The position numbers and the translations under genes were made by a program. From contig JASGHJ010000002.1 of the NCBI GenBank assembly GCA_047602405.1, positions 2,080,001 to 2,144,000 on the forward strand: 64,000 nt of DNA, in the 5' to 3' direction. The notes below the pieces were generated by a model. The model was given only the letters and a program-made list of their open reading frames with translations, was not told the origin of the DNA and searched no databases. The DNA comes from Anaeromyxobacteraceae bacterium (GTDB lineage: Bacteria > Myxococcota > Myxococcia > Myxococcales > Anaeromyxobacteraceae). This document shows, in pieces, positions 1-17,265 of the stretch (its first letter is position 1; every line of letters begins with the position of its first letter).

Positions 1-1029
1 CCGTGGAAGAGCTGCTTCTCGAGCGCCTCGGTGAGGTCGCCGACCGTGATGGGCGCCCCGCCCTTGAAGGTCGCGAGGACCCGCTTGTCGGTCTTGAGCT
101 TCTCCCAGCCCTTCGCGTCGTAGTTGACCTTCTTCACGAGCGCCCAGTCGATCTTGGCGTCCGCGTCCGTGAGCTTCTTGTAGTAGGCCTCGAGCGTGAG
201 CTTGTTCTGGCGGGCGACAGACTGCTTCTCGGCCTCGGCCTTCGCCTCGGCGGACTCGCCGAAGCGGAATCTCGTCCACCCGGGCCACCACGAAGCCGTC
301 CTGGAGCTTGACGGCGTCGGTCAGGTGCCCCGCCTCGGTGAGCTGCACGGCGCCGAGCACCGCGGGGGCGAGATCCTTCCGCCCCGCCCAGGAGGACTCG
401 AGGCCCCCGGTCGCCTTCTTGGCCTCGAGCGCCACGCCCGCGAGCGCGCCGAAGTCCTTGCCGTCGATGACGGCCTTGCGGAACACCTGGGCCTCGTCGA
501 GCGTGGGGAACTTGATGGAGCGGAGCTTCCACTCCTTCACGGCCTCCCGGTAGAGCTTCTCGACCTCGAGCGCGTCCGGCTTCACGCCCTTCAGCGCGTC
601 CCGCTGCACGCGCTCGCGGAGGGCCTCCTTCTCCCAGGACTCGACCGCGAACCTCACTTCGTCGAGGTCCTGGATGCCGGACTGGTGCGCCTCGGCGAGG
701 AGGAGCCGGACGTTGAGGAGCCGCTGCAGCATCGGCTCGAACTCCATCTTCGCGGGCTTCGCGCCGCCCTTGTGCTCCTGGTGCGAGGCCGCCATGGCCT
801 CCGCGAGCATCGAGAGGGTCACCTGCTCGTCGCCCGCCGTCGCGATGACGGTGTCGGCGAAGCGCTGGTCGAAGAGCGGCAGGTTCACCGAGGCGACCAT
901 GTCGGGGGCGCCGCCGGTGCCCGCCGCGGCGGGCGGCGTGAGCGCCACGGGCTTCGAGGAACCGGCGCCCGGCATGGCGAGCGCGAGCCCGGGGGCGAGC
1001 GCGAGGACGGCGAGAAGGCGATTCGACAC
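1..1029 (-). CDS. SurA/PpiC-like peptidyl-prolyl isomerase/chaperone, exported; runs off the left edge; +1 frameshift near 268
   Basis: Manual translation from GTG at 1029 (GGGAGA RBS): MSNRLLAVLALAPGLALAMP signal peptide, then ...LQRLLNVRLLLAEAHQSGI...WKLRSIKFPTLDEA...DFGALA...GHLTDAVKLQDGFVVARVDE, a SurA_N plus rotamase-like pattern. Frame is restored by removing one base at GAATC 267-271. Confidence 0.7.
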   Translation of the reverse strand, partial: MSNRLLAVLALAPGLALAMPGAGSSKPVALTPPAAAGTGGAPDMVASVNLPLFDQRFADTVIATAGDEQVTLSMLAEAMAASHQEHKGGAKPAKMEFEPMLQRLLNVRLLLAEAHQSGIQDLDEVRFAVESWEKEALRERVQRDALKGVKPDALEVEKLYREAVKEWKLRSIKFPTLDEAQVFRKAVIDGKDFGALAGVALEAKKATGGLESSWAGRKDLAPAVLGAVQLTEAGHLTDAVKLQDGFVVARVDEIPLRRVRRGEGRGREAVCRPPEQAHARGLLQEAHGRGRQDRLGAREEGQLRREGLGEAQDRQAGPRDLQGRGAHHGRRPHRGAREAALPR

Positions 1030-1093
1030 GGTGGTCTCCCTGCGGCGCCGTCGCGCGGCGCGGTGTTCGGTGCGAGTCGGTGGCCTCGGCGTG

Positions 1094-1109
1094 TGCAACC
1101 CGTGTGCCC
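1094..1109 (-). promoter_or_regulatory. sigma54 (-24/-12) promoter of the PPIase gene
   Basis: Minus strand reads GGGCAC-ACGGG-TTGCA, a near-consensus TGGCAC-N5-TTGCA, 65 nt upstream of the start codon. Confidence 0.8.
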
Positions 1110-1158
1110 TACCCCGGTCGCAGGGCCCGTTTCAACGGTATGAATTTACTCGGCTTCG

Positions 1159-1180
1159 AGTTGGGCCATAGCACCCACTC
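1159..1180. promoter_or_regulatory. putative enhancer (UAS) palindrome TGGG-N8-CCCA
   Basis: AGTTGGGC-CATAGC-ACCCACTC; same core as the sites at 9138, 9168, 17327 and 17357. A CCCCACCC half-site follows at 1201-1208. Confidence 0.55.
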
Positions 1181-1257
1181 GCACGCGGTGCGCCGCCCGG
1201 CCCCACCCCCCGAAGCTTCTGCGCGGCCCGACGGAAAACCGAGGTGCAAGCGGTGTC

Positions 1258-2376
1258 TCAGCGCGAAGGCGGCGGGCGCGCCGCCATCATCCCATCGATC
1301 GCCTTTCGCACCATCCGGCAGGCCGCCTCGTGCGCGGTGAACACCCGCCCCTGCTTGAAGAGCGTCTCGCCGTCGTCGCCGCGGTTGTGCGAGGTGGACT
1401 GCCAGACGATGGCGCCGGTGTGGCCGTCGAGGACCGAGAGCGTGAAGGAGAGCCGCAGCGCGGCGGGCGTGCCCGGATCCTCGAAGTCGAAGATCTCGCC
1501 CGCCACCATGAGGTCCGCCTCCATCGCGCCGAGCAGCGTCCGGGCCTGCTCGAGGTTGACCCCGCCCTGCAGGATGACCCGGTACCGCAGGAGCAGGTCC
1601 CGCGTGACGCCGGGCTCCACCACGCGGAAGCGCTCCTGCGAGAGGAGGCCCTGCACCGCGGCGAGCGCGAGCGCCTCGCCAGCGCCGCGCACGCGCGAGT
1701 GGTTCACCCACGGCAGCACCACCACCTTGGGCGCGCGCACCTTCCCGAGGAAGGTGCTGCGGAACGGGATCTTCGGTGCGTAGGTCGGATCCGAGCCACA
1801 GCGCGGCGCGCGCGGACCGGCCCCCGAGAGCGCGCGGGCGAGCGAGCGGGACAGGCCCGCCGCGGCCTGCTCCTCGAGGCGCTCCACCTCGTGCACCAGC
1901 CCCAGCTTGAAGAGCCCCGGGCTCTCGTCACCGGCGCGGCCGAAGCCATCCATCCAGAGGATCGTGGGCTCCGGGCCGGTGGAGACGAGCCGCATCGAGA
2001 GCGCGATCCGCGGTGGATCTCCGGGCGTGTACTGCTCGAGCACCGTCGCGACGATGCCGTCCACGGCGAGCTCGTCCGCCGCGGTGCTCGCCGCGAGGGG
2101 GTCGACGGCGCCGGTGTACCGGATCCGGTGGCGCTCCAGGAACGCGTCCACCGCCGCGCCCGTGACGACCTCGATCCCCTGGCGGGCGAGCGCGGACTCG
2201 AACGTCGCGAGCAGGCGGCGCACCGGAACCGCGACCCCGCTCACGTTCTCGATCGGCAGGAGCGCGACGCGGGTGACCGCGCGCGCCTCGTCGCCGCGCG
2301 CCGGCCCCCCCGCCAGCGCGGCCGCGAGGGCGACGGCCGCGAGCGCCCTACTTGAAGAGCTGGTCGAGGAGATCAT
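1258..2376 (-). CDS. exported protein with two CsgG/LpoB/TolB_N-like alpha-beta domains (omcS companion)
   Basis: Two repeats starting RVALLPIEN and KVVVLPWVN, each with an xxADxxxxG and G.IVW-type motif; signal peptide; start codon uncertain. Confidence 0.65.
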   Translation of the reverse strand: MISSTSSSSRALAAVALAAALAGGPARGDEARAVTRVALLPIENVSGVAVPVRRLLATFESALARQGIEVVTGAAVDAFLERHRIRYTGAVDPLAASTAADELAVDGIVATVLEQYTPGDPPRIALSMRLVSTGPEPTILWMDGFGRAGDESPGLFKLGLVHEVERLEEQAAAGLSRSLARALSGAGPRAPRCGSDPTYAPKIPFRSTFLGKVRAPKVVVLPWVNHSRVRGAGEALALAAVQGLLSQERFRVVEPGVTRDLLLRYRVILQGGVNLEQARTLLGAMEADLMVAGEIFDFEDPGTPAALRLSFTLSVLDGHTGAIVWQSTSHNRGDDGETLFKQGRVFTAHEAACRMVRKAIDGMMAARPPPSR

Positions 2377-2929
2377 CCACCGCCGCCTCGGTCACGTCGT
2401 TGAGCGGCTCGCCCCCGCTGCCGAGGAGCCGCCCGGAGAGCGTGACCCCGCCCTTCGTCGTCTGGCCCGCCCAGACCACCCTGCCCGTGGCGGTCTCCTG
2501 GAGCTGCACCGAGAGCGAGATGGTGTTCGCGGCCGCAGCGCCCTGGCGGACCTCGCCGTACTCCTTCACCGTCCCGGTGAAGATCGCGTCGGCCTTGAGG
2601 GTCTTCCCGAGCTTCATGACCTCCTCGACCGAGGGTGCCACCGGGTTCGCGACCCCCGCGATGCCGATGCCCCGGACCACCTCGCCGCCGGGCAGCACGT
2701 AGAAGGCGTTCGTGGCGAGGAGCATGGTCGCGAAGACGTCGCGCACGCGCTCACCGGCGAGCGTGTCGCGCGCGAGGTTCGAGAACGGCAGCACCGCCAC
2801 GGTCTTCACGGCCCCGAAGTCCATGTTCCGGTCCATGTAGGTCCGCTTCTGCGCCTTGGAGGCGGCGCAGGAAAGCCCCCCTGCGGCGAGGGCGAGAACG
2901 AGCGCGATGGTGGAGAGGCGACGTGGCAT
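2348..2929 (-). CDS. CsgG/GNA1162-like lipoprotein (omcS companion)
   Basis: Lipobox (AGGLSC); KTVAVLPFSN...LGKTLKADAIFTGTVKEY...ETATGRVVW; GGAG RBS before ATG 2929. Confidence 0.75.
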   Translation of the reverse strand: MPRRLSTIALVLALAAGGLSCAASKAQKRTYMDRNMDFGAVKTVAVLPFSNLARDTLAGERVRDVFATMLLATNAFYVLPGGEVVRGIGIAGVANPVAPSVEEVMKLGKTLKADAIFTGTVKEYGEVRQGAAAANTISLSVQLQETATGRVVWAGQTTKGGVTLSGRLLGSGGEPLNDVTEAAVDDLLDQLFK

Positions 2930-2952
2930 GGGCTTCACTCCGGGTGGGTATC

Positions 2953-5167
2953 CTATCGTATCGCGACGAAGAGGTTCGTGATGAACGACCAGCCGTCCGA
3001 ATCGACCGACGGTCCACGCGTGGCCTCGACCGCATAGCTCGAGTCGATGTAGACCCCGGGCCGCAGCGTGAGCCGCGCCCCGGGGCCCCAGCTGCGCTGA
3101 CGCTCGTCGATCGAGCCGTTCAGCGTCTCGGAGTACCCGAAGCGTACGTTGAGCGCCCCGCCCCTCAACGGAGTCGCGTTCAGCGTGAACGAGGAGAGCG
3201 TGGCGACCTTGCCGGCCTCGTAGGAGCGGGCGAGCGAGCCGCCGAGCGAGAGGGCCGGGAACGGGGCCCAGGCGACGTTACCCTCGATCCGGGATCGCCG
3301 GGTCCACGGCCCGCCGTTCGCGCTGTTCGAGGCAACGGAATAGGACGCGCCGAAGGTGGCGGTCCGGTGCGGGGAAACGTCGCAGGCCACGCCCGCCAGG
3401 GCCGAGCGCGCGACACCCGAGCGCGCCCCGCGCCCGACGCTCGCCGCGCCATTCGTGGAAAGGCTGATGCCGTCAAAGGGCTCGGCGCGCATGAGCCCGC
3501 CGCCGCTCGCGCCCCAGGTGCGGCCGTAGCGGGTCTCGCCGGTCGTGGCGCCAACATTGAGGGAGCCCCCTGCAGTCGGGATGGGCTCGAAGTTGAGGTT
3601 CGCGCTCGCCTGGGTCTGGCCGACGTGCCCGTCCGCGCCCGACGAGTCGGTGCGCCCGAGCCGTGCGAGCCACGAGGCCCGTGGGCCGAGGCTGCGCCCG
3701 GCACCGAGCCCACTGGCGAGTGCCCATGTGCTCCGGGTGCCGTGCGTGACGAAGGCGCTCGTGTCGAACGCGAGGCCCCAGCGCGGGTCCAGGAGGAGCC
3801 TGAGGCCGGCGTTGAGCGTCCCTCCTGTTTCCCCACTGTGCCCCTTCACCTCGTCCGCGGGGCGCCCGTAGTAGGCCTGCAGCTCCGTGACCTGGAGCTC
3901 GCGGTAGGCCGGATCGCTCGTGACGCCGTCCGCCAGCGGGAGGGTCACGAGCTTCACGTAGCGGGCGCGCACGGTGGCGATCTCGGATCTCGAAGCGCGC
4001 GTCGAACGCGGGGAACGTCACGCGCCCGCCGGCCGCGGGGTCCACCGTCTCCCGCTGCGTCCAGAGGACGTTGTCGTCGGAGGTCCAGACGGTCCAGGCG
4101 AGCCGCTGCCAGACGCTCTCGGGGAGCATCCGGTCGACCCAGACGTAGAGGCGGTTGATCGGGGTGGAGGCGTCCGGGAAGCGCAGGCCCAGCTCCCGTC
4201 GGCGGAGCCGGTCGGCGAGGGGCTGGCCGTAGCCGAGGTCGAGCCCGGCGGTGCCCGTGAAGTCCCCGTCGATGAGGCGGGCGTTCGTGACGAGCCGCGA
4301 GGTGGCCTCCGTGGAGAGGTCGCCCGCGGCCGGCACGTGCGCCAGCCCCTCCGCCGCGAGCTGGAGGGTGAGCACCGTCGCGCCCGGCTGGGCGGCCACC
4401 CAGCTGTCCCGCCGCCCCACCGTGTAGGAGGCGCTGGCGCTGCCGCGGCGGTCCCAGAAGCGCGTGGACCAGAGTGCCGCGAAGCTTTCGCTCGCATCCT
4501 TCGTGGATATGCTGGAGATTTGGTCGTCGGACGAGCCGTAGCGGACCGACGCCCGCAGATCGAGGTCCCGGAGCTCGCGGTAGGCCGTGGCAACGGTCGC
4601 CGTAAACGTCTGCTGGTCGTCGGTCCGCCGCGCCTCGTCATGCCGGTCGGTGAGGCCGAGTGCGAGATCCACGGTGGGCCCGCCCTCCGGCCGCCAGCCT
4701 GCGCTCGCACTCCAGACGTCCCGCATTCGGATCGGTCCGGATCTCCGCGCCACCCCCTCCGTGTCTTGAGCACCCCAAGCCTGCTGGCGGTCGTAGGAGA
4801 GTTGGCCAGCGAGGATGGGTGGACCAAACCCGATCCGGAGGTTGCCGAGCCAGGTCTCTCGGTCCTGGCGCGTATCGAGGCCATCCAGGGACCCGTCCAG
4901 GTGGGCCGCCGCGAAGGAACCCAGGCCAGAGAGCGTGAGGTACGGGTAGATCGACTTGTCGAAGGTGAGGCGGTACTGCTGCGTGAGCGCGGCCTCGTCC
5001 TGCCTGTAGGCCGTGCCGTCCGCGCCGCGGGTCTCGTGTTCGGAGAGCCGGTACGAGGGCTCGAGCGTGAGCGCCCACGAATCGCCGCGCGCGAGCGCCG
5101 GCGCGGCCGCGAGGGCGCACCCCAGCAGCGCTGCGCAGGCACCGGGCGCGTGGCTCCGGACCCTCAC
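2953..5167 (-). CDS. large outer-membrane beta-barrel with inserted discoidin/F5-8-like domain; +1 frameshift near 3985
   Basis: ORFs 3473..5167 and 2953..3972 join at RFEI/EIATVRARYVKLV. Alternating beta-strand pattern, signal peptide, C-terminal FITNLFVAIR. The middle part LIDGD...WTVWTSDDNVLWT...ARYVKLV resembles a galactose-binding-like domain. Confidence 0.7.
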
Positions 5168-6578
5168 CGCCGCTCACCCCCAACGACGAGCCGCCCGGGC
5201 TCGCCGGCCACGTCCACGAGCCCGAGCACCTGGCGCGCGGCGAGCCCCACCACCGCGATGGCCCCTCGCGAGGGGAGCGCCACGAAGAGCACGTTCTGCG
5301 CGTCGTCGAGGGCGAGCTCGCCGGGGACGTCGGGCAGCCGGACCCCACCCGCCGGGACGAGCGAGAAGGGGTCGAACAGAATCCAGCCGATCGTCGTCGC
5401 CCGCGGCCACCCAGAGGTAGTCGGTCCGCGGCTCGACGAAGATCGCGCGGGTCGCCGCGCCGACGTAGACGCGCGCCGAAGCCGCGCCTCCCGGGAGCGT
5501 GAGCGCGGTGACGTGGGGCGCGCCCCGGTGAAGCACGAACAGCCGGGTCGCGGCCCGGTTGAGCTGGACCCGCACCGGCTCCGCCTCCGTCGCGTACGTC
5601 GCCGCGACCGCGCGGTTCGGGAGATCGAGCACGGTCACCGAGGCCGAGCGCGCATTCGGGACGTAGGCGAGGCGGCCGGTCCGGTCGAGCTGGAGCCGGC
5701 CCGGCTCCTCGCCGGTCCGCACCCGGGCGAGCTCGAGCCCGCCGCGGGGATCCAGGAACGCCACCGAGGCCGCGCCCGCGCATGCCACCACGAGGCTCGC
5801 GCCGTCCGGAGAGACGAGGAGGTCGGCCGGCGCGTCGCCCGGCTGCAGCCGCTCCCGGGAGAGCTCGGCGCCGCTCAGGAGAATCCAGCACCTGCACCTC
5901 GTCGCGGCGCGGCAGCGACACGAACACCCGCTGCGACCTTGCATCGAGGGCCACGCCGCCGGGCTCGGCGTCGGTGCCGAGCGCGGCCACCACCTCCCGG
6001 CGCAGCCTGTCGACGAGGACGACCCGGCGCTCACCGGGGGTGAGCACCGCCGCGACGGCGGCCGGATTGGGCGCCTGTGGCTCGAACACCGCGAACCGGG
6101 GCGAGAACGCCATCGCGCCCTCGAGCGCGCGTGAGACCTCCAGCGAGGCCCACCGCACGAGCGGCCGCCCCGCCTCGATGGAGAAGGGCGCCTCCAGCCG
6201 GACCGGCTCTCCCACCGAGAGGTCGCTCCGCCCGGCGTCGCCCTGGAGCGCCGCACCGCGCGCCTGCACGAGGAGGCCCGCGTAGCTGCCCGCCGGCAGG
6301 TGGCCCCGCGCGAGGAGCCGCTGGCTGCGGGTGTCTCGCCCCGAGAGGTCCGAGACCGCGACCTCGAGCGGCACCGCCGTGCCGTCCGCCCTCACCGCGG
6401 CGACCGCGCCCAGGGAGAACGAGAGCCGGGCGGCGTCGGGCGGGAGCGGCTGCACGTAGAGGAGGAGCGTCCCCTCTCCGGCCCCGGGACCCGCCCGCCG
6501 CGCGGCGACCGTGGCGCAGCCGGCGACGAGCACGGCCGCGAGGGGCAACAGCGCGAGGCACAGCGTGGGCTTCTGCAT
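5164..6578 (-). CDS. lipoprotein with YVTN/YncE-type beta-propeller; frameshifts near 5883 and 5381
   Basis: MQKPTLCLALLPLAAVLVAGC lipobox; repeats PGGVALD, PADLLVSPDG, PGRLQLDRTGRLAYVPN. The reconstructed frame ends LVVGGERR* with a GTGA overlap onto the barrel gene. Confidence 0.75.
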
Positions 6579-6603
6579 TCCACCCTCCGTGTAGCGCGAA
6601 GCC

Positions 6604-6635
6604 AAAAAAAGGGGGCCGCCGAGGCGGCCCCCCTT
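6604..6635 (-). terminator. rho-independent terminator after omcS-like gene
   Basis: GGGGGCCGCC/GGCGGCCCCC stem followed by T7 on the minus strand. Confidence 0.85.
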
Positions 6636-6657
6636 CTAACACACCATCAGGCCAGGC

Positions 6658-7971
6658 TTAGTCCTTCGCGTGGCACTTGTTGCACTGGCTGCGGGCCCAG
6701 GGGCCGAACGCGGTCGCAGGGCGGCCGTTGTACGCCGCCTGCTGCTGCGCCTGGCTGTAGCCGTAGTTGATCTTGTTCTCCGTCGTGGACGAGTCGTAGA
6801 TGGCCGCGTTGGAGGCGTCGGCGACCGTCATGAACTCGTTCAGGTAGAAGAACCGCAGCATGCTCTCGAAGCCCGACGCGTGCGCGCGGTGGCAGGAGAG
6901 GCAGGACACGTTGGTGGTCGTGTCCGCCGCCACCGGCGTGGCCGCGCGAGCCTTGAGGCCGTCGTACGTCGCGATCGAGCTGTCCGTGAAGCCGTACTCG
7001 AAGGGAACGAGCGTCGAGTAGCGATTCGCGGAGGCACCAAGAATGCCCGAGGTGATGTACCGGTTGTAGTTGTCAGCGATCTCGGCGGTCAGCTTCGCGC
7101 CGTTGCCAGCCGGGTGGCGGAGGCCGGCCATGCCGGAGGTGTAGGAGTTCTTGAGCATCTCCCCGTGGCAGTTCGCGCACCACTCGGAGGAGTTACGGCC
7201 GAGGGCGTACTGGGTCTGGGTCGTGCCCTCCGACCGGTTGTAGCTCGAGGCGACGACGGCGTCGAACACGGGAGCGGTGAACGCGAAGGAGCCCGTGAGC
7301 GACTTCGGCTGGTAGCCAACGCCGGCGAGGATGCGGTACACGCCGCGGGCGGAGACCCCGGCGATCGGGTTGGCGGAGTTCGTGTACGAACCCGAGCCGA
7401 AGATCGGGAGACCCGTCGAGGCGACGGAGCCGTCCGCGAAGCGGCGGTAACGGCCGTGCGGGTCGTGGCAGGACTGGCAGCCAAGGTTCGCGGCCGGGTA
7501 GGTGCCGCCCGGGGCGACCGTGAGCTCAGGGTCCGCGACGTAGCCGAAGTCCGCCGCGACCACGTTGTGACCGTGGCGCTCGCCGGGGTTGCCGTCCGCG
7601 GCGACCGTGCCGCGGATCGTCACGTTCATGGTCTTCTTCAGCCACGCGAAGTCGCCACCCGGGGTGTTCTCAACCGGCGTGGTGGTCGTGTCGTACGGCG
7701 TCACGCCAGCGGTGGAGATGTGGTAGCTGCTCGGCGCCGTGTCGGCCGCCTGGTGGCAGTTGAGGCACGAGCCGGACTGGTCGTTCGCCTTGAGGAGGTA
7801 CGGGCCCGTCCCCTGCGCGAAGGTGCGGCCGGTCACGTTCGGCGCGCCCTCGAACGAGTTGTGCATCGAGTGGCAGCCCTCGCACTCGGCGACGCCGCCG
7901 GAGTGGAAGGCGTACGCGTTCGTACCCACGAACGCGAGCATCGCCGCGACTGCAATCTTCATGAACTTCAT
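6658..7971 (-). CDS. omcS: hexaheme c-type cytochrome, OmcS nanowire family
   Basis: Signal peptide then FHSGGVAECEGCHSMHNS...CLNCH...SSYHISTA...TPGGDF...CQSCHDPHGRYRRF...SEWCANCH...RHPAGNGAK...CLSCHRAHASGF...CNKCHAKD. Six CxxCH, colinear with Geobacter OmcS/OmcT as recalled. Confidence 0.9.
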   Translation of the reverse strand: MKFMKIAVAAMLAFVGTNAYAFHSGGVAECEGCHSMHNSFEGAPNVTGRTFAQGTGPYLLKANDQSGSCLNCHQAADTAPSSYHISTAGVTPYDTTTTPVENTPGGDFAWLKKTMNVTIRGTVAADGNPGERHGHNVVAADFGYVADPELTVAPGGTYPAANLGCQSCHDPHGRYRRFADGSVASTGLPIFGSGSYTNSANPIAGVSARGVYRILAGVGYQPKSLTGSFAFTAPVFDAVVASSYNRSEGTTQTQYALGRNSSEWCANCHGEMLKNSYTSGMAGLRHPAGNGAKLTAEIADNYNRYITSGILGASANRYSTLVPFEYGFTDSSIATYDGLKARAATPVAADTTTNVSCLSCHRAHASGFESMLRFFYLNEFMTVADASNAAIYDSSTTENKINYGYSQAQQQAAYNGRPATAFGPWARSQCNKCHAKD

Positions 7972-8087
7972 CTTGCTTCCCCTTGGTTGGTACTGCGGTC
8001 CCCTGCTTGCTTCGTTACTGCTGCTTGCTGCGCCTGTGATTCCCCCCGCCGCCCGTCCCACCGGGCGGCGTTGCTGCCTGAACCTGG

Positions 8088-9053
8088 TTACTGCGTGCTC
8101 GCTGCCGAGACCCTGAAGACGCTGACCCCGCGGTTCGCCCGCTGGGAGACGAAAAGCCGGTTGCCGGCCACGACGAGGTCGGTCGGGCCGACGAGGCTGT
8201 GGGGCCGGTTGCCGCGGTAGCCGAACTCCTTCACGAAGTTCAGCTTGCGGTCGAAGACGATGACCGCGTTCTTGAGGACGTCGGAGACGTAGATAAATCC
8301 GTCGTCCCCGCGCGCGATGGCAGAGAGCACCTGGAACTTGCCGGGGGCGCTGCCCTTCGTGCCGAATAGCATCGGCTTGCCTTGGGGCGGCGCGACGCAG
8401 GCCGCGAACATCGTTCTCAGCGTGAAGAGGACGTTCCCCTCCGCATCGACATCGAAGCCGCCCATCTCGGCCGAGGCCTTCTTCTCCTCGACCTTGCGCG
8501 GGTCGATCTCCTCGCCGGCGAAGTCGATCTCGTCGCGGAAGTCCCGCGCCGCGAAGACGGCGCCGTCGAGTCCGAAGCCGACGACCTTCAGCGCCATGAA
8601 GCTCGCGAGGTAGATGCGGTCGCCGCGCACCACGAGACCGTCCGGCTGGAAGCCCTCGAGGAAGCCCTTCGGTGCGCCGGCCAGCGTGAGCTCGCCCTTC
8701 ACCTCGCCGCGGAAGTTGCAGCGGGTGACGCGCCACCGCTCGGCGTTCACCGAGACCACCACGAGGTCGCCGCCCTCGAGCCCGGCGACGAGGCGGGGCA
8801 TCCCGAGCTCCTCGGAGGTGCCGAACGCGAACGTCTCCATGCCGGCCTGGTTGAAGACGCGGGCAACGCCGCCGGTGACCACCCAGAGCTCGCGGTTGCC
8901 GGCGTCCCAGGACAGCTTCGCCTCGGAGGCCTTGAGCAGGCCGGCCGGGCTCGCGAGGCCGTGGAGGTAGGCCACCTCGAACGCGCGGGCCGAGGCCGGG
9001 GCGACCGAGGTCGCGGCGGCGAGGGCGAGGGCGATGGAGGTCGTGGCGCGCAT
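8088..9053 (-). CDS. NHL-repeat beta-propeller protein, exported (GSU2505-like, upstream of omcS)
   Basis: Signal peptide; FGTKGSAPGKF...GFIYVSD...VIVFD...EFGYRG...LVGPTDL NHL motifs. Confidence 0.8.
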   Translation of the reverse strand: MRATTSIALALAAATSVAPASARAFEVAYLHGLASPAGLLKASEAKLSWDAGNRELWVVTGGVARVFNQAGMETFAFGTSEELGMPRLVAGLEGGDLVVVSVNAERWRVTRCNFRGEVKGELTLAGAPKGFLEGFQPDGLVVRGDRIYLASFMALKVVGFGLDGAVFAARDFRDEIDFAGEEIDPRKVEEKKASAEMGGFDVDAEGNVLFTLRTMFAACVAPPQGKPMLFGTKGSAPGKFQVLSAIARGDDGFIYVSDVLKNAVIVFDRKLNFVKEFGYRGNRPHSLVGPTDLVVAGNRLFVSQRANRGVSVFRVSAASTQ

Positions 9054-9074
9054 CGTGTGGTGCACGCCCACCTG

Positions 9075-9091
9075 TGCATCAGGGAGGCCAA
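9075..9091 (-). promoter_or_regulatory. sigma54 promoter of the NHL-omcS operon
   Basis: Minus strand TTGGCCTCCCTGATGCA has GG-N10-GC spacing, about 22 nt upstream of the ATG. Confidence 0.7.
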
Positions 9092-9137
9092 CCCCGATCC
9101 CCTGGTTTCCAGGGCTTTTCGGTTCTTCGATTACCAG

Positions 9138-9189
9138 GGGTGGGGGCTTTCACCCATGAGCACGTTCGGGTGGGGGAGATGCCCCACCC
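9138..9189. promoter_or_regulatory. tandem UAS palindromes, 30 bp apart
   Basis: GGGTGGGG-GCTTTC-ACCCATGA (9138) and the perfect GGGTGGGG-GAGATG-CCCCACCC (9168). Confidence 0.7.
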
Positions 9190-9381
9190 AAGATCCCCCA
9201 ATCCACGGGGCGCCAGAATTGCGCCGCATCAGGTGCGCGCACGTAAACGTCCGTGTTCACGGAGGGACGACGGGAGCCGGAAGAGTCCGAAGGTGTGCGG
9301 CGGGAGTCACCAGGCCTGCCACCCCGGGGCACGAGGTCGAGCGCAACCCCGCGCGGACGGCGCGGTGCGCCTACCTGGGCG

Positions 9382-10377
9382 CTATCCACGGTGCGTGAAC
9401 GTACCGTCGCCCCAGGTCGCCTCGCGTACCACGTACAAGGGGCGCCCCTTCACCTCCTCGAAGATCCTCCCGACGTACTCCCCGAGGATCGCGAGGCCGA
9501 GCAGGTTGGCGCCGCCGACGACGGCCACGATGACCACGAGCCCCGTCCAGCCGGGCACGGTCTCGTGGAGGAAGTACTTGGCCACGACCGCGTACCCGCC
9601 GTAGCCGAGCGCGAAGAGCGCGGTGAGCGTCCCCACGAGCCCGATGAGCTTCACCGGCACGATCGAGAACGACAGGGCCGCGTTCCAGGCGAGCTTCGCC
9701 ATCTTCCAGAAGGGGTACTTCGTCTCCCCGTGCAGCCGGGCGGCCCGCGCGTAGCGGACGGCGGTCTGCGGGTATCCCACCCAGGCGAACATCCCCCGGA
9801 CGAACCGGTGGACCTCGTTCATCCGGAGGACGGTGTCGAGGCAGCGCCGGGAGACGAGCCGGAAGTCGCCGGCGTCCACCGGAAGCGCCGCGTGCACGAA
9901 GCGGCGCATGAGCCGGTAGAACGCCCAGGCCGTGAGCCGCTTGAAGGTGCTCTCCCCTGCCCGCTCCGCGCGCTGCCCGTAGACGACGTCGTAGCCGTCA
10001 CGGTAGTGGGCGACCATCTCGGTCACCACCTCGAGCGGGTCTTGCAGGTCGGCGTCGAGGATCACCACCGCGTCGCCGCGCGCCACCGCCATGCCGGCGG
10101 TGATGGCGCTCTGGTGCCCGAAGTTGCGCGAGAAGCTCAGCCCGCGCACGCGCGGATCCTCCGCGGCCCACCGCTCGAGGAAGGCCCAGGAGCCGTCCCG
10201 CGAGCCGTCGTCGACGAGGACGACCTCGCACGCGAAGGGCACGGTCGCGAGCCACGCCTCGAGCGCGGCCCTCAGGTGCGGCAGCCCCTCCTCCTCCTGG
10301 TAGACCGGGAAGACGAGGCTCACGAGGCCCGGCATCGGCCGGGGCTGGAGCCCGGACGCGGGCGCGGGGAAGTTCAT
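9382..10377 (-). CDS. GT2 polyprenol-phosphate glycosyltransferase (GtrB/YfdH/ArnC family)
   Basis: VDDGSRDG, FSRNFGHQSAITAG, ILDADLQDP, GDFRLVSRR, two C-terminal TM helices, GEYVGRIFEEVKGRPLYVV. Confidence 0.92.
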   Translation of the reverse strand: MNFPAPASGLQPRPMPGLVSLVFPVYQEEEGLPHLRAALEAWLATVPFACEVVLVDDGSRDGSWAFLERWAAEDPRVRGLSFSRNFGHQSAITAGMAVARGDAVVILDADLQDPLEVVTEMVAHYRDGYDVVYGQRAERAGESTFKRLTAWAFYRLMRRFVHAALPVDAGDFRLVSRRCLDTVLRMNEVHRFVRGMFAWVGYPQTAVRYARAARLHGETKYPFWKMAKLAWNAALSFSIVPVKLIGLVGTLTALFALGYGGYAVVAKYFLHETVPGWTGLVVIVAVVGGANLLGLAILGEYVGRIFEEVKGRPLYVVREATWGDGTFTHRG

Positions 10378-11492
10378 CCGATCCACCGGTTGGAGGCGTG
10401 CACGACCACCGCCGCAGCCTGGAGCACCGTGCCCGCGCCCACGACCCACGGGAACGCCCGACCGAGCCGGCCGGCGACGCAGGCGAAGAGCGGGAAGACC
10501 ACCGCCACGTAGCGCACGTAGGACGTCATGCTGCCGGTGAGCGCCGGGATGCCCCCGACCACGAGGACGAAGACGAGCATCGCCCGGTCGAGCCTGCGCC
10601 ACGAGGTCGCGACCGCCGCCACGAACAGCACGAACGCCGCGCGGTCGAGCACGCTCGTCGTGAACCCGTTCCAGCTGAGCTTCACCTCGACGAAGTTGCG
10701 GGTGAACCAGTCGAGCGGGTGGAGCACGTTCGCGAGCGAGTTCTGCGCGAGGAACACCTTCTGGGCGTCGAACCCGGCGAGGGCGTCGCCGGTGGAGGCG
10801 TACAGGATCCCGAGGTACGCCGCGAAGCCGACCGCGAACGCGAGCGGCATCGGGAGCTTCCTCCAGGCCGGCCGCCACGCGGGCGCCAGGGCGGCGACGG
10901 CGACCGTCGCCGGCAGCGCGACCATGAGCCCGGTCGGGCGCGTCAGCGGCAGGAGGAAGGCGAAGGCGGTCGCGAGCCCGAGCTCGTTGCGCCTCAGATG
11001 GAAGAAGAGCCCGACCGCGAGCAAGAGGAAGAGCGCCTCGGTGTAGAGGAGCCCCGCGTAGAATGTGGTCGGAAACGCCACGAGGAGCAGGCACGCTCGC
11101 GAGGCCGTCGCCTCGTCGCGCTCCGCGCGGACGAGCAGGAACAGGTAGGCCACCGCGCCGAGGAAGGCCGCCGTGGAGAGCACGAGGCCGGCGACGAGGG
11201 CGTCGCCGCCCGCGAGCGGCCTCAAGAGCTTCAGCAGGAACGGCAGGAGCGGATAGAACGCGCTCGAGATGTGCTGGGGCTGGTAGCCCCAGTCGGCCAG
11301 GAACAGGTAGTGGTTCGCGTCCCAGGTCTTGAAGCACGAGCGGAGCGTCGGCTCCTCGTCGAACGGATACTGGAAGTTGGCCCAGTACGCCGGCTGGAAG
11401 AACGGCAGGATCCACGGGCTCGCGGCCACGAGCGCGAGCACGGCCAGCTTCGCGGCGAGCGCGCACGCGAGCACCTTCCAGAGCGGCTTCAC
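10374..11492 (-). CDS. PIG-V-like GT-C mannosyltransferase
   Basis: WDANHYLFLADWGY...AFYPLLP...FP...LYTEALFLLL...LTRPTG...RY motifs in a polytopic membrane protein. Confidence 0.8.
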   Translation of the reverse strand: MKPLWKVLACALAAKLAVLALVAASPWILPFFQPAYWANFQYPFDEEPTLRSCFKTWDANHYLFLADWGYQPQHISSAFYPLLPFLLKLLRPLAGGDALVAGLVLSTAAFLGAVAYLFLLVRAERDEATASRACLLLVAFPTTFYAGLLYTEALFLLLAVGLFFHLRRNELGLATAFAFLLPLTRPTGLMVALPATVAVAALAPAWRPAWRKLPMPLAFAVGFAAYLGILYASTGDALAGFDAQKVFLAQNSLANVLHPLDWFTRNFVEVKLSWNGFTTSVLDRAAFVLFVAAVATSWRRLDRAMLVFVLVVGGIPALTGSMTSYVRYVAVVFPLFACVAGRLGRAFPWVVGAGTVLQAAAVVVHASNRWIG

Positions 11493-13264
11493 GGCGACGT
11501 GCTCCTCTCCGACGCCCCGGCCCGCGCGCGCGCCTCGGCGAGGCGGGCCCTGAGCTCAGGGTCGTCCGGGGCGAGGCGGGCCGCCTCCTCGAGCGGCCGC
11601 ACCGCCTCCGCCGGACGCCCGGCGTCGAGGAGGACCGTCCCGAGCGCCAGCCGGGCCGAGGGATCCTCCGGCCGCAGCGGCACCGCGGCCGCGAGCTGGG
11701 CCTCGGCCTCGCCGAGCCGCCCGCGCTCCGCGAGCGCTCCTCCGAGGTTGAGCCTCGCCGTGTAGCTCCGCGGGTTCGCGGCCACGGCGCGCGCGTACAG
11801 CGCGAGGGCCTGGCCGGGCTGCCCCCGGCCCTCGAGCAGCATCCCGAGGTTGACGAGCGCGCTCGCCTCGACGGGCGGCGCCGGGCGAAGGTCGAGGGCG
11901 GCGCGCAGCTCCCGCGCGGCGCCCGCGGCGTCACCGCCGCGCATCAGCGCCGTCCCGAGGTTGAAACGGACCTCGGCGGCGCCGGGCGACTTCTCGGCGG
12001 CGTCCGCCCAGAGCGAGCGCTCGTCCTTCCACGCCGGGAGGTGCGCCCAGACGAGGGCGGCGCCCGCGAGCCCGGCCGCGGCCAGCAAGCCCGAGCGAAC
12101 GGCCTCGGCGCGCGGGCCGCGCGCGAGCCGCTCGAGCGCCACGCCCACGGCGAGGCACGCGCCGGCCGAGGGCAGGTACAGGTAGCGCTCCGCGAAGCGC
12201 GCGCCGCTGATCGCCGAGGTGAAGAACGCCGGGGCGAGCGCCACGCCGAAGAGCACGAGCCCGAGCGCGGCCACGCGGTCCCGCCGCCAGGCGAGCACGA
12301 GCGCGGTCGCGAGCACCGCGGCGGCGAGCCAGCCCGCGAGCGCCGCTGAGGACGCGGCCGAGGCGGGCCAGGCGACGTCCCAGTAGGCGTTCAGCGGGAA
12401 CGGCGCGACGAGCGCGCGGACGTACCGCGCCAGCGAGACCGGCACGGTGACGAGCGGCGAGGCCACGGCGGCGCCATGCGCCCGGGGGAGCGCGAGCAAG
12501 CCCCCGAGCGCGTGCTGGCGGAGCACGAGGTAGAGCCCGGCGGCGAGCGCGAACGGCGCGAGCCGCACCACCCTCCGCGACCAGCGGTCCATCGGCGCGA
12601 GGAGCGCCTCCGCTGCCAGGAGGACGAGCGGCAAGGGCAGGACGACCTCCTTCGAGAGGCCGCCGGCGAGGTACGCGGCCGCGCCGAGCCAGGGCGCGGC
12701 CCGGCCCCCCGGGCGCAGCGCGCGGACGTACGCGAGGAGCGCGAGGAGCGCGAAGGCCGTCGCGAGGAGCTCCGGCAGGGCCGCGATCCAGAGCACGGCC
12801 TCGGAGTGGACCGGGTGGACGGCGAAGAGGACACCCGCCGCGAGCGCGGCGTCGGGCGCCGCCGTGCGATCGCCCTCCCGCAGCGCCCTCCCGAGCGCGA
12901 GGACGGCCAGCGGCACCGCCGCGTTCACGAGCACGTTGAGGAGGTGGTAGGCCCAGGCCACCCGCCCGAAGGCCTGGCCCACCGCGAGGTAGGCCACGTG
13001 CATGAGCGGGCGGTAGTAGTTCGAGGTCCCGGCCTGGTCGAAGTCCCAGACCCCTCCCCCGAAGATCTCGGGCAGGTGGCCCCACCCCGACAGCCACCGG
13101 TTCGCGACGACCTGGGCCTGGTCGTCCCAGACGAAGCCGTGTCCGAGCGACGGGAGGTAGAGCGCGAGCGACAGCGCGAAGAGCGCGGCAGGCTCGAGCC
13201 ACCCGTGCCGTCCGGAGAGGGGCGCCCCCGGAGCGGCGCCCTCATGTCCCTTTCCACGGGCCAA
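11489..13264 (-). CDS. TMTC-like GT-C membrane protein with C-terminal TPRs (copy 1)
   Basis: FVWDD, YYRPL, HPVHSEAVLWI, SKE, AERYLYLPS, W.D...LW, then TPR repeats; start codon uncertain. Confidence 0.8.
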   Translation of the reverse strand: MARGKGHEGAAPGAPLSGRHGWLEPAALFALSLALYLPSLGHGFVWDDQAQVVANRWLSGWGHLPEIFGGGVWDFDQAGTSNYYRPLMHVAYLAVGQAFGRVAWAYHLLNVLVNAAVPLAVLALGRALREGDRTAAPDAALAAGVLFAVHPVHSEAVLWIAALPELLATAFALLALLAYVRALRPGGRAAPWLGAAAYLAGGLSKEVVLPLPLVLLAAEALLAPMDRWSRRVVRLAPFALAAGLYLVLRQHALGGLLALPRAHGAAVASPLVTVPVSLARYVRALVAPFPLNAYWDVAWPASAASSAALAGWLAAAVLATALVLAWRRDRVAALGLVLFGVALAPAFFTSAISGARFAERYLYLPSAGACLAVGVALERLARGPRAEAVRSGLLAAAGLAGAALVWAHLPAWKDERSLWADAAEKSPGAAEVRFNLGTALMRGGDAAGAARELRAALDLRPAPPVEASALVNLGMLLEGRGQPGQALALYARAVAANPRSYTARLNLGGALAERGRLGEAEAQLAAAVPLRPEDPSARLALGTVLLDAGRPAEAVRPLEEAARLAPDDPELRARLAEARARAGASERSTSP

Positions 13265-13311
13265 GGCCGCGAACTCTCCCCGTCCCGTGTCCCCGCGTCA
13301 ACCCGGCGGGC

Positions 13312-16300
13312 TTACAGGTGGCAGCTCCTACACGCGGCCGCCGCCTTGTTCGCGGTGATGTCCACGTTCCCGTTCGCGTGGAGCGCCGGGTTGGTGAGCC
13401 GGACGTTCCCGCCTGCCACCGTGCCCGCCGCGTCGGAGTGGCAGAGCGAGCAGTCGTTCTGCGTCCCGAGCGACCCGTGCGCCCCGGAGTGCCACGCTCC
13501 GTTGAACGTCGGCGCGCCGTGGCAGCTCGAGCAGGTGATCGTCTCGCCCGTCCAGATCGCCGTAGCCCCCTTGCCCGTGTAGTCGAGGGTGTGGGTCACG
13601 TCGTCGGGCGTCGTCCACTGGTAGGTGCCCTGGTAGTTCCCGTGGCAGTACGTCGACGCGCAGCTCGCGGTGCCGCGGGTCCAGGAGGCCGCGACCGGCC
13701 CCTGGAGCGTCCAGGTCTTCGGGAACGACACGTCCAGCACCCCGTCCATGTGCCCGATGTTCGTGAGCGGCGGCGTGACGTGGCAGGCGTCGCACGTGTA
13801 GCCCGCGGTCACCGCCCCGGCGGTCACATGCTTCTGGTGCGCGCCGACGCCGAGCGTGGCCGTCGAGGTGTCGCCGTTCACCGCGGTGGGCGGCGCCGAC
13901 TGGACGTACTTCGGGTCCGCCGTGCCGGTGGCCGTGCGGCTCGAGTCGCCGTGACAGGAGGCGCAGGTGAGGTCGATGATGTCGAGCTTGCCGTTGATGT
14001 GGGTCGCGGCGTTCACCGACGACGACGTGTAGCCGGTGTGGCAGCGGCCGCAGTCCGGCGTCGCCGGGTGCGCCGGCCCGGGCGGCGGCGCCCCGTGGCA
14101 GCTGTTGCAGGCGGTCTGGCCCGCGCTCACCTGCGTCCACTTCGGCGTGGTCGCGACGCCGCCGGCGGCGAGCGTCGCGCCGTGGCAGTAGGTCGAGGCG
14201 CAGGTCGCGGCGTTGCGGTCCCACGCGGGCGCCGCGCCGTCGGTCTTCACGAAGTCGCTGAAGGCCAACTGGCGCACGCCGTCGGCGTGGAGGTTGGTCG
14301 AGGGCACCGGGTGGCAGTCGCTGCAGGCGAAGGCCCGGCCGATGTTCCCGGCGTAGACGTGCTTCTGGTGCGCGCCGACCGCGAGCGTGGTGGTCGCGCT
14401 CTCGTCGCCGGTGCCGGTCGGCGGCGCGGCCCTCTGGAGGTCGGTGCCGGCGCGGTTCGAATCGCCGTGGCAGGACGCGCAGCTGAACGCGAGGAGGTCG
14501 AGGTTGCCGTCCGCGTGCTTCGCCTTCGAGTACTGCAGCCCGGCGTCGGCCGGGTGGCAGCCGCCGCAGGCCGCGCGCTGCGGGTGCGGCGAAGGTGGCG
14601 GGGCGGCGTGGCAGCTGCCGCAGGAGGCCTCGGACGCGCCGCCGGTCCAGGCCGGCGTCGTGTGCGTGCCGCCGGGGAGCGTCGCGCCGTGGCAGTACGA
14701 GCTCGAGCAGCTCGTGCCGTTCCAGGTGGTCGTCTTCCCGTTGATGGTCTTGAACGCGGTCGCGACGGTGCCGTTCGCGTGCGAGAGGTCGGCCGGGACC
14801 GCGTGGCACGCGTCGCAGGCGACGCCGTCGGTCAGGGTCGAGCCGTTCACGTGCGCGGCGTGCGCGCCGACGGCGCGGGTCGAGGTCGCGGTCTCGTTCT
14901 GCGTGCCCTGCGGCGGCGCGGCCTTCTTGAGGTCGGCCGCGGTGTAGCTCGTCACCCGCGTGCCGTGGCAGAAAGTGCAGTTCTGCGCCCAGGTCGCCGA
15001 GCCGCCGAGGTGGCAGCCGGTGCAGGAGACGGCGACCACCCCGCCGAGGAGGTCGGCGCCGTGGCAGCCCTTGCAGCCGCCGAGATCCTGGTTCGCCTGG
15101 AGGCCGTGGTTCGTCGGGAGCACCCAGTCGGTCGGGTGGTACTTCGTGACGTCGACCGTGCCGTTCACGTGCTTGCCGCCCGCGAGGTCGATCGCGCCGC
15201 CGGCGGTGACCGTGTTCGCGTGGCAGGTGCGGCAGGCCGCGAGCGTCGGGTGCGGCGCCGGGGGCGGCGCGCCGTGGCAGGTGCCGCAGGCGGCCTCGGC
15301 CGCGCCGCCGGTCCAGGCCGGGGCGGTCTTCGTGCCGCCGGCGTTCAGCGTGGCGCCGTGGCAGTAGGTCGACGCGCAGGTCTGCGTGGCCGTGTACGAG
15401 GGCGCCGCGCCGTCCTTCGTGGCGAGCGCGCCCCAGGTGAGCTTCCTGACGCCGTCGACGTGCGAGAGGTCGGTCGGGACCGCGTGGCACTCGGTGCACG
15501 CGACGCCGCTCGACATCGTGCCGCCGGAGAGGTGGCTCTGGTGCGCGCCGACGGCGCGGGTGGAGGTCGCGAGCTCGCCCTGCGTGCCGACCGGCGGGGC
15601 GGGCTTGTTCGCCGAGCGGTTCGCGTCGCCGTGGCAGAAGGTGCAGTTCGACTGCCAAGTCGCGCCGTGGCACGTCGCGCAGGAGATGCCGGTGCCGCCG
15701 CCGGCGAGGTCGGCGCCGTGGCAGGACTTGCAGGAGGCGAGGTCGGCGTTCGCCGCGTAGCCGTGCACGGTGGGCGTCGCCCAGTTCGCCGGGTGGTAGT
15801 CGTTCACCTCCACGGTGCCGTTCACGTGCATGCCGTTCGCGACCTTGATGGTCACGTCGTCGTTCTCCACCGTGCCGGGGTGGCAGATGTGGCAGGCGGT
15901 GGACTTCGCGGTGTGCGGGGCCGTGGTGGGTGGGGCGCCGTGGCAGGTGCCGCAGTCGGCCTGCGTCCCGTCGACCTTCGTCCACAGCGGCTGCTGGAGC
16001 GTGCCCCCGGAGAGCGTCTGGCCGTGGCAGTAGACGCTGCAGGTCGCGTTCGTGGTGTCGAACGTGGGCGTGCCCTTCGCGCCGGCGAGGCCGGAGAAGG
16101 TCACCTTCACGACGCCGTCGGAGTGGAGCTGGTCGGCCGGGACCACGTGGCACGCGCTGCACTCGAACGCCTTCGACAGCGGGCCGGCGGCGAGGTGCGC
16201 CTGGTGCGCGCCGACCGCGCGGTCGGTGGTGGCGGTCTCGCCGTCGAGGCCGATGGGCGGCGCGGACTTGAGGAGGTCGGTCGTGACGCGGGTCGAGTCG

Positions 16301-16941
16301 CCGTGGCAGGTGGCGCACCCGCCGGTGAGGTCGACCTGGCCGTTCATGTGCTTCTCGGTCACCGCCGACGGCGCCGAGCCGAGCGTGAGCGAGCCGGCGT
16401 GGCACCTCTGGCAGTCGGTGCGGGCCGGGTGCGGCGCCTTCGGGGGCACACCGTGGCAGCTGCCGCAGGAGGCCTGCGGCGGGGAGACGACGTTCCACTT
16501 CGGGGCCGGGTTCGTGCCGTCGGCGAGCGTCGCGCCGTGGCAGTAGACGGTGCAGGTGGCGGTCTCGCGGTTCCAGCTCGCGGTGAAGCCGGCCGGCGCG
16601 GCGAGGGGGCCGAAGCGCACCGCGACCTTGCCGTCGATGTGGGCGAGCGGGTTCGCGGCGTCGGGCGCCGGGTGGCACGCCGCGCAGTCAAGCTTGGGCG
16701 AGAGGTGCGCGGGGCCGAGGACGTGCGCGGAGTGCGCGCCGACCGAGAGCGCGGTCGGGCTCGACTCGCCCTTCACGGACCGCGGCGGGGCCCCGCCGTC
16801 GCTCTCGACGCCACCGTGGCACCGGGTGCACTTCGACTCGGTGGCGCCCTCGGCGCCGACGACGGTGCGGGACTGGCAGCCGGCCCCCGCGACGAGCGCG
16901 GCAGCGGTGATCACCACGAGGTGGAGCGAGCGCGACGTCAT
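13312..16941 (-). CDS. very large multiheme cytochrome c lipoprotein, CxxxxCH/CxxCH repeat family (35 heme motifs)
   Basis: Lipobox LVAGAGC; counted 29 CxxCH, 2 Cx3CH and 4 Cx4CH in repeated modules containing VGAHxxH. Confidence 0.9.
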   Translation of the reverse strand: MTSRSLHLVVITAAALVAGAGCQSRTVVGAEGATESKCTRCHGGVESDGGAPPRSVKGESSPTALSVGAHSAHVLGPAHLSPKLDCAACHPAPDAANPLAHIDGKVAVRFGPLAAPAGFTASWNRETATCTVYCHGATLADGTNPAPKWNVVSPPQASCGSCHGVPPKAPHPARTDCQRCHAGSLTLGSAPSAVTEKHMNGQVDLTGGCATCHGDSTRVTTDLLKSAPPIGLDGETATTDRAVGAHQAHLAAGPLSKAFECSACHVVPADQLHSDGVVKVTFSGLAGAKGTPTFDTTNATCSVYCHGQTLSGGTLQQPLWTKVDGTQADCGTCHGAPPTTAPHTAKSTACHICHPGTVENDDVTIKVANGMHVNGTVEVNDYHPANWATPTVHGYAANADLASCKSCHGADLAGGGTGISCATCHGATWQSNCTFCHGDANRSANKPAPPVGTQGELATSTRAVGAHQSHLSGGTMSSGVACTECHAVPTDLSHVDGVRKLTWGALATKDGAAPSYTATQTCASTYCHGATLNAGGTKTAPAWTGGAAEAACGTCHGAPPPAPHPTLAACRTCHANTVTAGGAIDLAGGKHVNGTVDVTKYHPTDWVLPTNHGLQANQDLGGCKGCHGADLLGGVVAVSCTGCHLGGSATWAQNCTFCHGTRVTSYTAADLKKAAPPQGTQNETATSTRAVGAHAAHVNGSTLTDGVACDACHAVPADLSHANGTVATAFKTINGKTTTWNGTSCSSSYCHGATLPGGTHTTPAWTGGASEASCGSCHAAPPPSPHPQRAACGGCHPADAGLQYSKAKHADGNLDLLAFSCASCHGDSNRAGTDLQRAAPPTGTGDESATTTLAVGAHQKHVYAGNIGRAFACSDCHPVPSTNLHADGVRQLAFSDFVKTDGAAPAWDRNAATCASTYCHGATLAAGGVATTPKWTQVSAGQTACNSCHGAPPPGPAHPATPDCGRCHTGYTSSSVNAATHINGKLDIIDLTCASCHGDSSRTATGTADPKYVQSAPPTAVNGDTSTATLGVGAHQKHVTAGAVTAGYTCDACHVTPPLTNIGHMDGVLDVSFPKTWTLQGPVAASWTRGTASCASTYCHGNYQGTYQWTTPDDVTHTLDYTGKGATAIWTGETITCSSCHGAPTFNGAWHSGAHGSLGTQNDCSLCHSDAAGTVAGGNVRLTNPALHANGNVDITANKAAAACRSCHL

Positions 16942-17249
16942 CTATCCCCCTGCTGCTCGGTGCGACCGCCCCCGCGGACACACCTCTGCCGGCGACACGC
17001 CGTGGAGAAGCTCCCCACCCCACGTGAACCCGGTGTGAAGGGCGCAGTGTAGGGAATCTCGCCGGCGGAGTTCTGGATCGGGATCAACTCGCGCACGCGA
17101 AACCCTCAGGTGCGCTGGGGTTCTTCCGAGCGGCACGAAGAACACGGAGAAGGGGGGCACACCGACCCCCCGATTGGAATGCCCCCCTCCGTCACGTAGA
17201 GCCGCACCCCTCCCCCGAGAACCGCGGCTCGACTGCTGCGAGACCCCTT

Positions 17250-17265
17250 AGCACGCGTCGTGCCG
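17250..17265 (-). promoter_or_regulatory. sigma54 promoter of the large cytochrome gene
   Basis: Minus strand CGGCACGACGCGTGCT has GGCAC and GG-N10-GC; UAS pair lies 60-110 bp upstream. Confidence 0.65.

Follow-up and report, generated by a model that had tools for sequence, protein, structure and literature searches.

An omcS/osc gene cluster in an Anaeromyxobacteraceae bacterium and a candidate route for cytochrome export

How do folded multihaem cytochromes pass across the outer membrane, and how are they polymerised? This question is touched by a locus at the start of a 64,000-nucleotide stretch of DNA (here called the window) from Anaeromyxobacteraceae bacterium (assembly GCA_047602405.1, contig JASGHJ010000002.1, positions 2,080,001–2,144,000), the genome of which comprises 6.16 Mb in 2 contigs with a GC content of 74%. 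An earlier note on this DNA had read the locus as an OmcS nanowire cytochrome with a companion assembly cluster outside Geobacter. Judged by homology and gene order, the locus is a ten-gene omcS/osc cluster, orthologous to the cluster of Geobacter sulfurreducens. We consider it probable, although well short of certain, that this cluster provides for the production, export and assembly of OmcS-type cytochrome filaments used in extracellular electron transfer; as far as the protein families tell, the likeliest mechanism would be a barrel and lipoprotein exporter of folded, haem-loaded OmcS. Statements cited below to PMC accessions rest on excerpts of those papers.

Orthology, gene content and spread of the cluster

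As the G. sulfurreducens reference we used genome G076, the OmcS of which is identical to PDB 6EF8. The osc gene letters follow PMC13194489, in which oscC is GSU2501, oscI is GSU2495 and oscJ is GSU2494; the letters D–H are assigned by position, five genes separating oscC from oscI. The genes of the G076 omcS neighbourhood served as queries against the complete host genome, and the window genes as queries against the G076 genome. The upstream NHL gene, oscD–oscJ and the downstream NHL gene of G076 each find their best match in the host genome at this locus, in the same order. In the reverse direction, genome-wide in G076, the window NHL protein, OscF, OscG and one piece each of OscD, OscE and OscH have their best match in the G076 cluster. 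OmcS, the NHL protein and OscD–OscH are reciprocal best hits between the two genomes; for OscI, OscJ and the second NHL protein, the best hits are genome-wide one way, with the reverse searched only within the fetched regions. The two clusters share the arrangement NHL–omcS–oscD–E–F–G–H–oscI–oscJ–NHL on the same strand, with protein identities from 26% (OscE) to 61% (OscF). The cytochrome and its six companions in the window (NHL propeller, YVTN lipoprotein, barrel, two lipoprotein-family proteins and a peptidyl-prolyl isomerase (PPIase)) are all encoded on the minus strand, ordered as the earlier note has it, and the orthology to the Geobacter omcS neighbours on which its proposal depended is borne out.

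The first gene of the cluster (8088–9053) encodes a 321-residue NHL-like β-propeller protein with a signal peptide (37% identity), orthologous to the gene that immediately precedes omcS in G. sulfurreducens (by numbering, GSU2505); it has one weak NHL-family match in NCBIfam and none in Pfam at E ≤ 0.001. After omcS (6658–7971) comes oscD (5164–6578; 35% identity to G076), encoding a lipoprotein of about 470 residues with a YVTN/YncE-type propeller that is supported by domain-library matches. A CxxCH motif at the OscD lipobox is found in G076 only (gene L081:8273–9769); the host protein lacks it and it occurs in 0 of 58 other orthologues. The start of oscE overlaps the stop of oscD (GTGA), and oscE itself (2953–5167) encodes an outer-membrane β-barrel of about 738 residues. 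It is followed by oscF (2348–2929), which encodes a 193-residue lipoprotein with a single GNA1162/PelC-like domain, and by oscG (1258–2376; 36% identity), which overlaps the end of oscF and encodes a protein of 372 residues. Unlike its G. sulfurreducens counterpart, host OscG has no lipobox cysteine. Finally, positions 1–1029 hold the 5′ part of oscH, encoding a SurA/PpiD-like chaperone of about 574 residues with two rotamase domains; the gene runs off the window start and the cluster extends beyond position 1. Downstream of oscH, outside the window, lie oscI (L001 15338–17305; a cytochrome with 26 haem motifs), oscJ (L001 14058–15329; 16 haem motifs) and the second NHL gene (L001 13171–14070).

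Compared with the G. sulfurreducens operon, the host lacks omcT, oscC and omcJ, and the homologue of the gene at the GSU2502 position, a fused transporter/spermidine synthase, is encoded about 830 kb away from the cluster. The locus shows omcT, oscC and the GSU2502-type gene to be outside the conserved core of the osc cluster.

A survey of the best 80 of 310 matching stretches, kept as 79 loci, found oscD–E–F–G–H complete and ordered in 51, partial in 11 (in most of these the end of the locus cuts the series) and absent from 17, the last being short contigs or family copies remote from the cluster (for example, L008, L016, L026 and L062). These counts are not independent, because several loci share genomes and kin. 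Carriers belong to Geobacterales, Desulfuromonadales, Desulfocapsa, Myxococcales, Anaeromyxobacteraceae, Nitrospirota and Acidobacteriota; among those in culture is Anaeromyxobacter oryzae Red232 (L045). Of 36 genomes of the genus, the 19 with a strong OmcS match are also the 19 with a strong OscE match (cut-offs of 1e-20 and 1e-50, picked after the fact); none of the 24 genomes that represent other families of the order has such a match. Many Anaeromyxobacter genomes hold two or more omcS-family copies, with one in the host and one in its nearest relative; because they vary across loci, the extra copies look accessory. OmcS homologues were reported earlier in Anaeromyxobacter dehalogenans, a species of the same genus (Portela et al. 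2024, PMC10954620, Fig. 9), the companion genes not being described in the excerpts of that paper. The host locus is a real osc cluster belonging to a described system, and its occurrence in Anaeromyxobacter is already published: OmcS outside Geobacter holds for the host, its novelty does not.

As assembled, three of the genes are interrupted by four +1 frameshifts, located near 5882 and 5381 in oscD, near 3984 in oscE and near 268 in oscH. Taken at face value, these would make the export genes decaying pseudogenes in this strain, a reading to which we give hardly any credence. The nearest relative in the genome collection, Anaeromyxobacter sp. (locus L002; OmcS 85% identical, DNA 88–92% identical across the region), has oscD (469 residues), oscE and oscH intact, at 83–88% identity. 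Three of the frameshift sites read GAATC, with GATC restoring the frame, and the fourth adjoins GATC. The pattern recurs in an alignment of 396,368 columns with the nearest relative (genome G065; 22 regions of 20 kb), in which GAATC or GATTC is found at 37 of 84 distinct simple +1 events, as against 0.19% of random 11-mers, and GATC is involved in 2 of 51 −1 events. We infer that the frameshifts are likely to be systematic base-calling errors at a modified motif, and that the cluster is therefore likely to be intact in the cell. Because these +1 insertions at GATC are systematic genome-wide, other broken genes of this genome are suspected artefacts as well.

The OmcS-family cytochrome

Homology and motifs identify the gene at 6658–7971 (minus strand) as encoding an OmcS-family hexahaem cytochrome c of 437 residues. 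A leader of 21 residues precedes a mature chain of 416 residues, which starts at residue 22, opens with FHSGGVAECEGCHSMH and carries six CxxCH motifs; its histidines are at mature positions 2, 13, 16, 52, 63, 112, 114, 148, 151, 248, 265, 340, 343 and 413. The mature N terminus and His16 reported by the earlier note are thus present. The sole PDB match of the protein is OmcS (6EF8; E 3e-133) over the full length (1–407 of 6EF8), and its identity is 58% to OmcS, 52% to OmcT, 50% to OmcJ and 45% to OscC. It is the one OmcS-family match in the whole host genome. Because G. sulfurreducens OmcT, OscC and OmcJ as queries each match this gene alone, the earlier statement that there is a single omcS copy and no omcT is valid host genome-wide, for these queries. 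With only one OmcS-family gene, the cluster is free of the redundant paralogues that make Geobacter genetics difficult. An AlphaFold2 model of the apo-cytochrome had a predicted local distance difference test score (pLDDT) of 30.9 and was therefore not used.

OmcS has twelve histidine ligands, one of which is supplied by the neighbouring subunit (Filman et al., PMC6584659), and His16 is linked to haem V (PMC13319180); ligand roles other than that of His16 were assigned by count from PMC6584659. Host His2, His16, His114, His151, His265 and His343 align with OmcS His2, His16, His110, His147, His257 and His335, respectively. We collected 97 distinct six-motif family members from the 79 loci, the window and four G076 proteins, leaving out partial or frameshifted copies. 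The first five of these non-motif histidines are retained in 97 of 97 members and His335 in 96, so that the additional histidines listed in the earlier note are present and five besides His16 are near-invariant; the exception is the histidine of its ‘YH’ motif, His63, which is retained in 80 of 97. Since six motif and six near-invariant histidines already make twelve, His63 is likely not a haem ligand.

Does this cytochrome form filaments that serve extracellular electron transfer? Three points weigh against that reading. First, every one of the 97 family members, OscC, OmcT and OmcJ among them, has His16, and the residue does not discriminate polymer-formers. Its invariance in these paralogues means that it cannot support the filament claim, for which the earlier note had used it as a mark: on this alignment, His16 is necessary for polymerisation, yet no evidence of polymerisation. 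Second, trees calculated with FastTree on 97 rows and with IQ-TREE on 35 hand-picked rows place the cytochrome in a well-supported clade with Geomonas, Pelobacter and Myxococcota proteins, with no supported sister grouping with G. sulfurreducens OmcS; OmcS, OmcT/OmcJ and OscC are unresolved around this clade. The cytochrome is therefore a family member, its one-to-one orthology to OmcS being unproven. Third, G. sulfurreducens is reported not to need OmcS for growing on anodes or for reducing Fe(III) oxide (PMC13194489).

In a rival reading, the cytochrome would be a non-filament carrier, exported or held in the envelope like the paralogue OscC, with the cluster serving surface display without nanowires. 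The histidines common to all paralogues would fit such a carrier, as would the listing of OscC as periplasmic (PMC13194489). We nevertheless judge it improbable: identity is highest to OmcS, the protein lies outside the OscC clade (support for that clade 100/99, IQ-TREE on 35 rows), and its gene stands where omcS would, between the NHL gene and a terminator-like hairpin. We know of no filaments imaged in Myxococcota.

That hairpin, GC-rich and with a U-run, is located between omcS and oscD (6604–6637, minus strand; fold z −2.9) and is likely an intrinsic terminator or attenuator, to judge from its composition. Of 61 loci, 22 have a similar hairpin within the 300 bases that precede oscD, compared with 3 of 168 control stretches before oscE, oscF or oscH, a contrast flattered by the mostly coding nature of the controls; in G076, the corresponding hairpin is placed 3′ of omcT. 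A generic terminator scan missed the hairpin, its terminator count being at chance level; a promoter scan found no sigma-70 site, and Rfam gave no match in window positions 1–20000. During growth on electrodes, omcS was up 19.46-fold and GSU2497 1.32-fold (table in PMC3495685), values that are in line with uneven expression of omcS and the downstream genes.

A candidate export machinery

The locus points to a specific architecture for export: a large barrel with a PelC-like collar. The haems of c-type cytochromes are attached in the periplasm, and an exported cytochrome would therefore be folded. In the mechanism that we consider likeliest, OmcS would cross the inner membrane by means of its signal peptide and would receive its six haems in the periplasm, the hairpin 3′ of omcS permitting an excess of OmcS over the downstream machinery. 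Folding or holding the OmcS monomer would fall to OscH, the PPIase chaperone. Once folded, the monomer would exit by way of the large OscE barrel; OscF and OscG would form a collar on its periplasmic side, like PelC on PelB, and not a CsgG-type pore. Monomers would polymerise head to tail, His16 binding haem 5 of the neighbour, in a process shaped by OscD; the 26-haem and 16-haem periplasmic cytochromes, OscI and OscJ, would feed electrons in. For G. sulfurreducens, the proposed roles are folding for OscH, secretion for OscEFG and morphology for OscD (PMC13194489, citing Shen et al. 2025, Cell Chem Biol 32:239).

The earlier note had called OscF and OscG CsgG-like and the export route curli-like. 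A profile of 43 OscF sequences matches GNA1162 in the PDB (E 1e-7), then Pseudomonas aeruginosa PelC (E 2e-6), three further PelC chains and LpoB; the matches include 4HRV, 9H80_C and 5T11, and 5T0Z, 5T10 and 5T11 are described as PelC-like (PMC13631591). The OscG profile (31 sequences) matches the same PelC chains, and neither profile finds a CsgG chain in the PDB at E ≤ 1. The Pfam family PF05643 (GNA1162-like) is matched by 43 of 43 OscF members, host OscF scoring 34.4 bits against a cut-off of 25.9, and weakly by 10 of 31 OscG members. The lipobox cysteine of OscF, Cys21, is invariant. The C-terminal half of OscG is homologous to OscF (hhalign, 99.1%), and OscG is likely to consist of two tandem domains of the OscF fold.

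Could OscF and OscG instead oligomerise into a CsgG-type pore that secretes OmcS? By sequence comparison, both possess an α/β core of the CsgG/TolB_N type, although the likeness to CsgG is at this shared level only. Weak matches to Pfam CsgG (PF03783) occur in 20 of 43 OscF and 8 of 31 OscG members, and the Atlas neighbours of the Osc proteins, which show PelC likeness, also include CsgG-labelled clusters. Host OscF, however, is not among the Pfam CsgG matches of the host genome. Its alignment with PelC is nearly gapless, with gaps of only a few residues, whereas, in a weak alignment (probability 3%), the hairpin region of Escherichia coli CsgG is longer by 13 residues, an insertion that OscF lacks. 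CsgG makes its own 36-strand pore; PelC lacks the membrane-spanning segments of CsgG and has the porin PelB as its partner (PMC13631591). OscF has 193 residues as against 277 in CsgG, a separate large barrel is encoded and the cargo would be folded. A curli-like route is thus very unlikely, and of the CsgG likeness the shared core is what stands, PelC and GNA1162 being the better matches.

For the barrel, AlphaFold2 modelled the intact L002 OscE with a pLDDT of 90.7 and a predicted template modelling score of 0.65. Counted from the strand list, the model has 11 strands, an insert (about residues 265–437) and 17 further strands, about 28 in total. Standard barrel topology rules decide on which side of the outer membrane such an insert sits and, applied to 11 + 17 strands, would place it on the cell surface. 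In a fold search, the insert matches the CBM32 domain 5XNR (Z 11.1, r.m.s.d. 3.3, 130 aligned); the barrel matches generic large barrels, with MtrB (6R2Q_B) among the best.

The MtrB match brings in a porin–cytochrome conduit, in which OscE would be an MtrB-like sheath for the MtrA/DmsE-like OscI and OscJ, carrying electrons, and not protein, across the outer membrane to a surface OmcS that is exported otherwise. MtrB has the top TM-score among the listed Foldseek rows (0.34) and is near the top of VIA, tied (Z 13.8, r.m.s.d. 8.6, 406 aligned). OscI and OscJ score 296 and 225 bits, respectively, against a DmsE-family cut-off of 192, and where a locus reaches far enough, oscH is nearly always followed by oscI. 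Like MtrAB (PDB 6R2Q), the osc cluster combines a large barrel of similar size with DmsE/MtrA-like multihaem proteins. However, the fold scores of OscE are generic large-barrel matches, in which rows within 1 Z are tied, and OscE has no profile match to MtrB or PioB in Pfam, NCBIfam or PDB searches (for MtrB in the PDB, none at E ≤ 1). Three genes stand between the barrel and the cytochromes, and, in contrast to MtrAB, the osc system has an inserted β-sandwich, extra lipoproteins and a chaperone. Host oscJ is intact with 16 motifs, whereas G076 oscJ is split in two reading frames with 10 motifs in the first (L082:12189–13529), although that organism makes OmcS filaments; a frameshift in oscJ is listed as differing between strains, and the published proposal is one of secretion (PMC13194489). 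On balance, we regard the conduit as unlikely.

The barrel and lipoprotein exporter that we prefer resembles the PelBC exporter (PDB 9H80) in that OscF and the C-terminal domain of OscG match PelC by profile and an outer-membrane barrel gene is adjacent. It differs in that PelB has 16 strands and tetratricopeptide repeats (TPRs; PMC12141448), compared with about 28 predicted strands, a CBM32-like insert and no TPR in OscE, and in that PelBC exports exopolysaccharide whereas the Osc cargo would be protein. Several points count against this exporter. With E values of 2e-6 to 4e-4, the likeness to PelC is modest, and it stands beside the weak Pfam CsgG matches described above; OscE is without the periplasmic TPR stalk, which in PelB serves for docking into PelC (PMC12141448); and the PelC pore, at 3.2 nm, is narrower than the OmcS filament, the width of which is about 4 nm (PMC6584659), so that a collar of this kind would have to contain additional subunits or adopt an open form. 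A literature search gave no link of Osc proteins to PelC, with OmcS and PelC both named, among the papers searched, in a review of matrix-assisted laser desorption/ionization (MALDI) alone (PMC12983221), and no Osc terms were found in the supplements of PMC13194489.

More tentatively, OscE, OscF and OscG may form a distinct export machine, in which one chain would form a barrel of about 28 strands that bears a CBM32-like domain at the surface and a mixed collar of PelC-like subunits on the periplasmic side, and this assembly would pass a folded, haem-loaded cytochrome and polymerise it at the pore. The one-cytochrome, ten-gene version of the host would then be close to a minimal transferable nanowire kit, and some Anaeromyxobacter would have a more divergent second version for other hexahaem cargo. 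We hold this extended proposal to be possible but doubtful.

Variant loci and neighbouring genes

In many Myxococcota loci (L003, L004, L005, L006, L017, L052, L059–L061 and L071), a second omcS-family gene, transcribed divergently, lies just upstream of the NHL gene; it is absent from the host and from L002. The NHL gene is placed after omcS in three Geobacteraceae loci (L055, L057 and L069), and in genome G007 (L110–L111) it follows the second NHL gene and is itself followed by another omcS copy. Some same-genus genomes contain a second, divergent osc-like cluster: L107 (G020:C38), L108 (G026:C31) and L109 (G029:C309) each encode a pair of hexahaem proteins with about 25% likeness to OmcS, a 9-haem protein and an OscE-like barrel. 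An NHL gene is found in L107 and L109, a 42-motif cytochrome together with F, G and H in L107 and L108, and no OscD match in any of the three clusters.

Glycosyltransferase family 2, PIG-V-like and membrane-plus-TPR (TMTC-like) genes flank the host cluster on both sides (window 9382–13264, 21024–22721 and 25011–26783; L001 5931–7889 and 12383–13153). We considered these glycosyltransferase neighbours as a core part of the system and rejected them because, with three window genes as queries, homologues were found in just 3 of the 50 loci that have 8–10 kb upstream. On the cluster strand, 4 kb upstream, positions 13312–16941 encode a 1209-residue lipoprotein cytochrome with 29 CxxCH motifs (CxxxxCH/CxxCH repeats); BLAST finds matches to it in 14 of 81 loci, of which some may be generic multihaem matches. 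Positions 23550–30936 encode a 4Fe-4S protein, an NrfD-type membrane protein, two GcvH-like proteins, a trihaem c7 (PpcA-like; 27616–27966) and a 9-haem cytochrome, which could possibly serve as a quinol-oxidising electron source near the cluster. At the far end of the window, 62270–64000 hold a Peptidase M2 (angiotensin-converting enzyme family) gene that runs off the window end.

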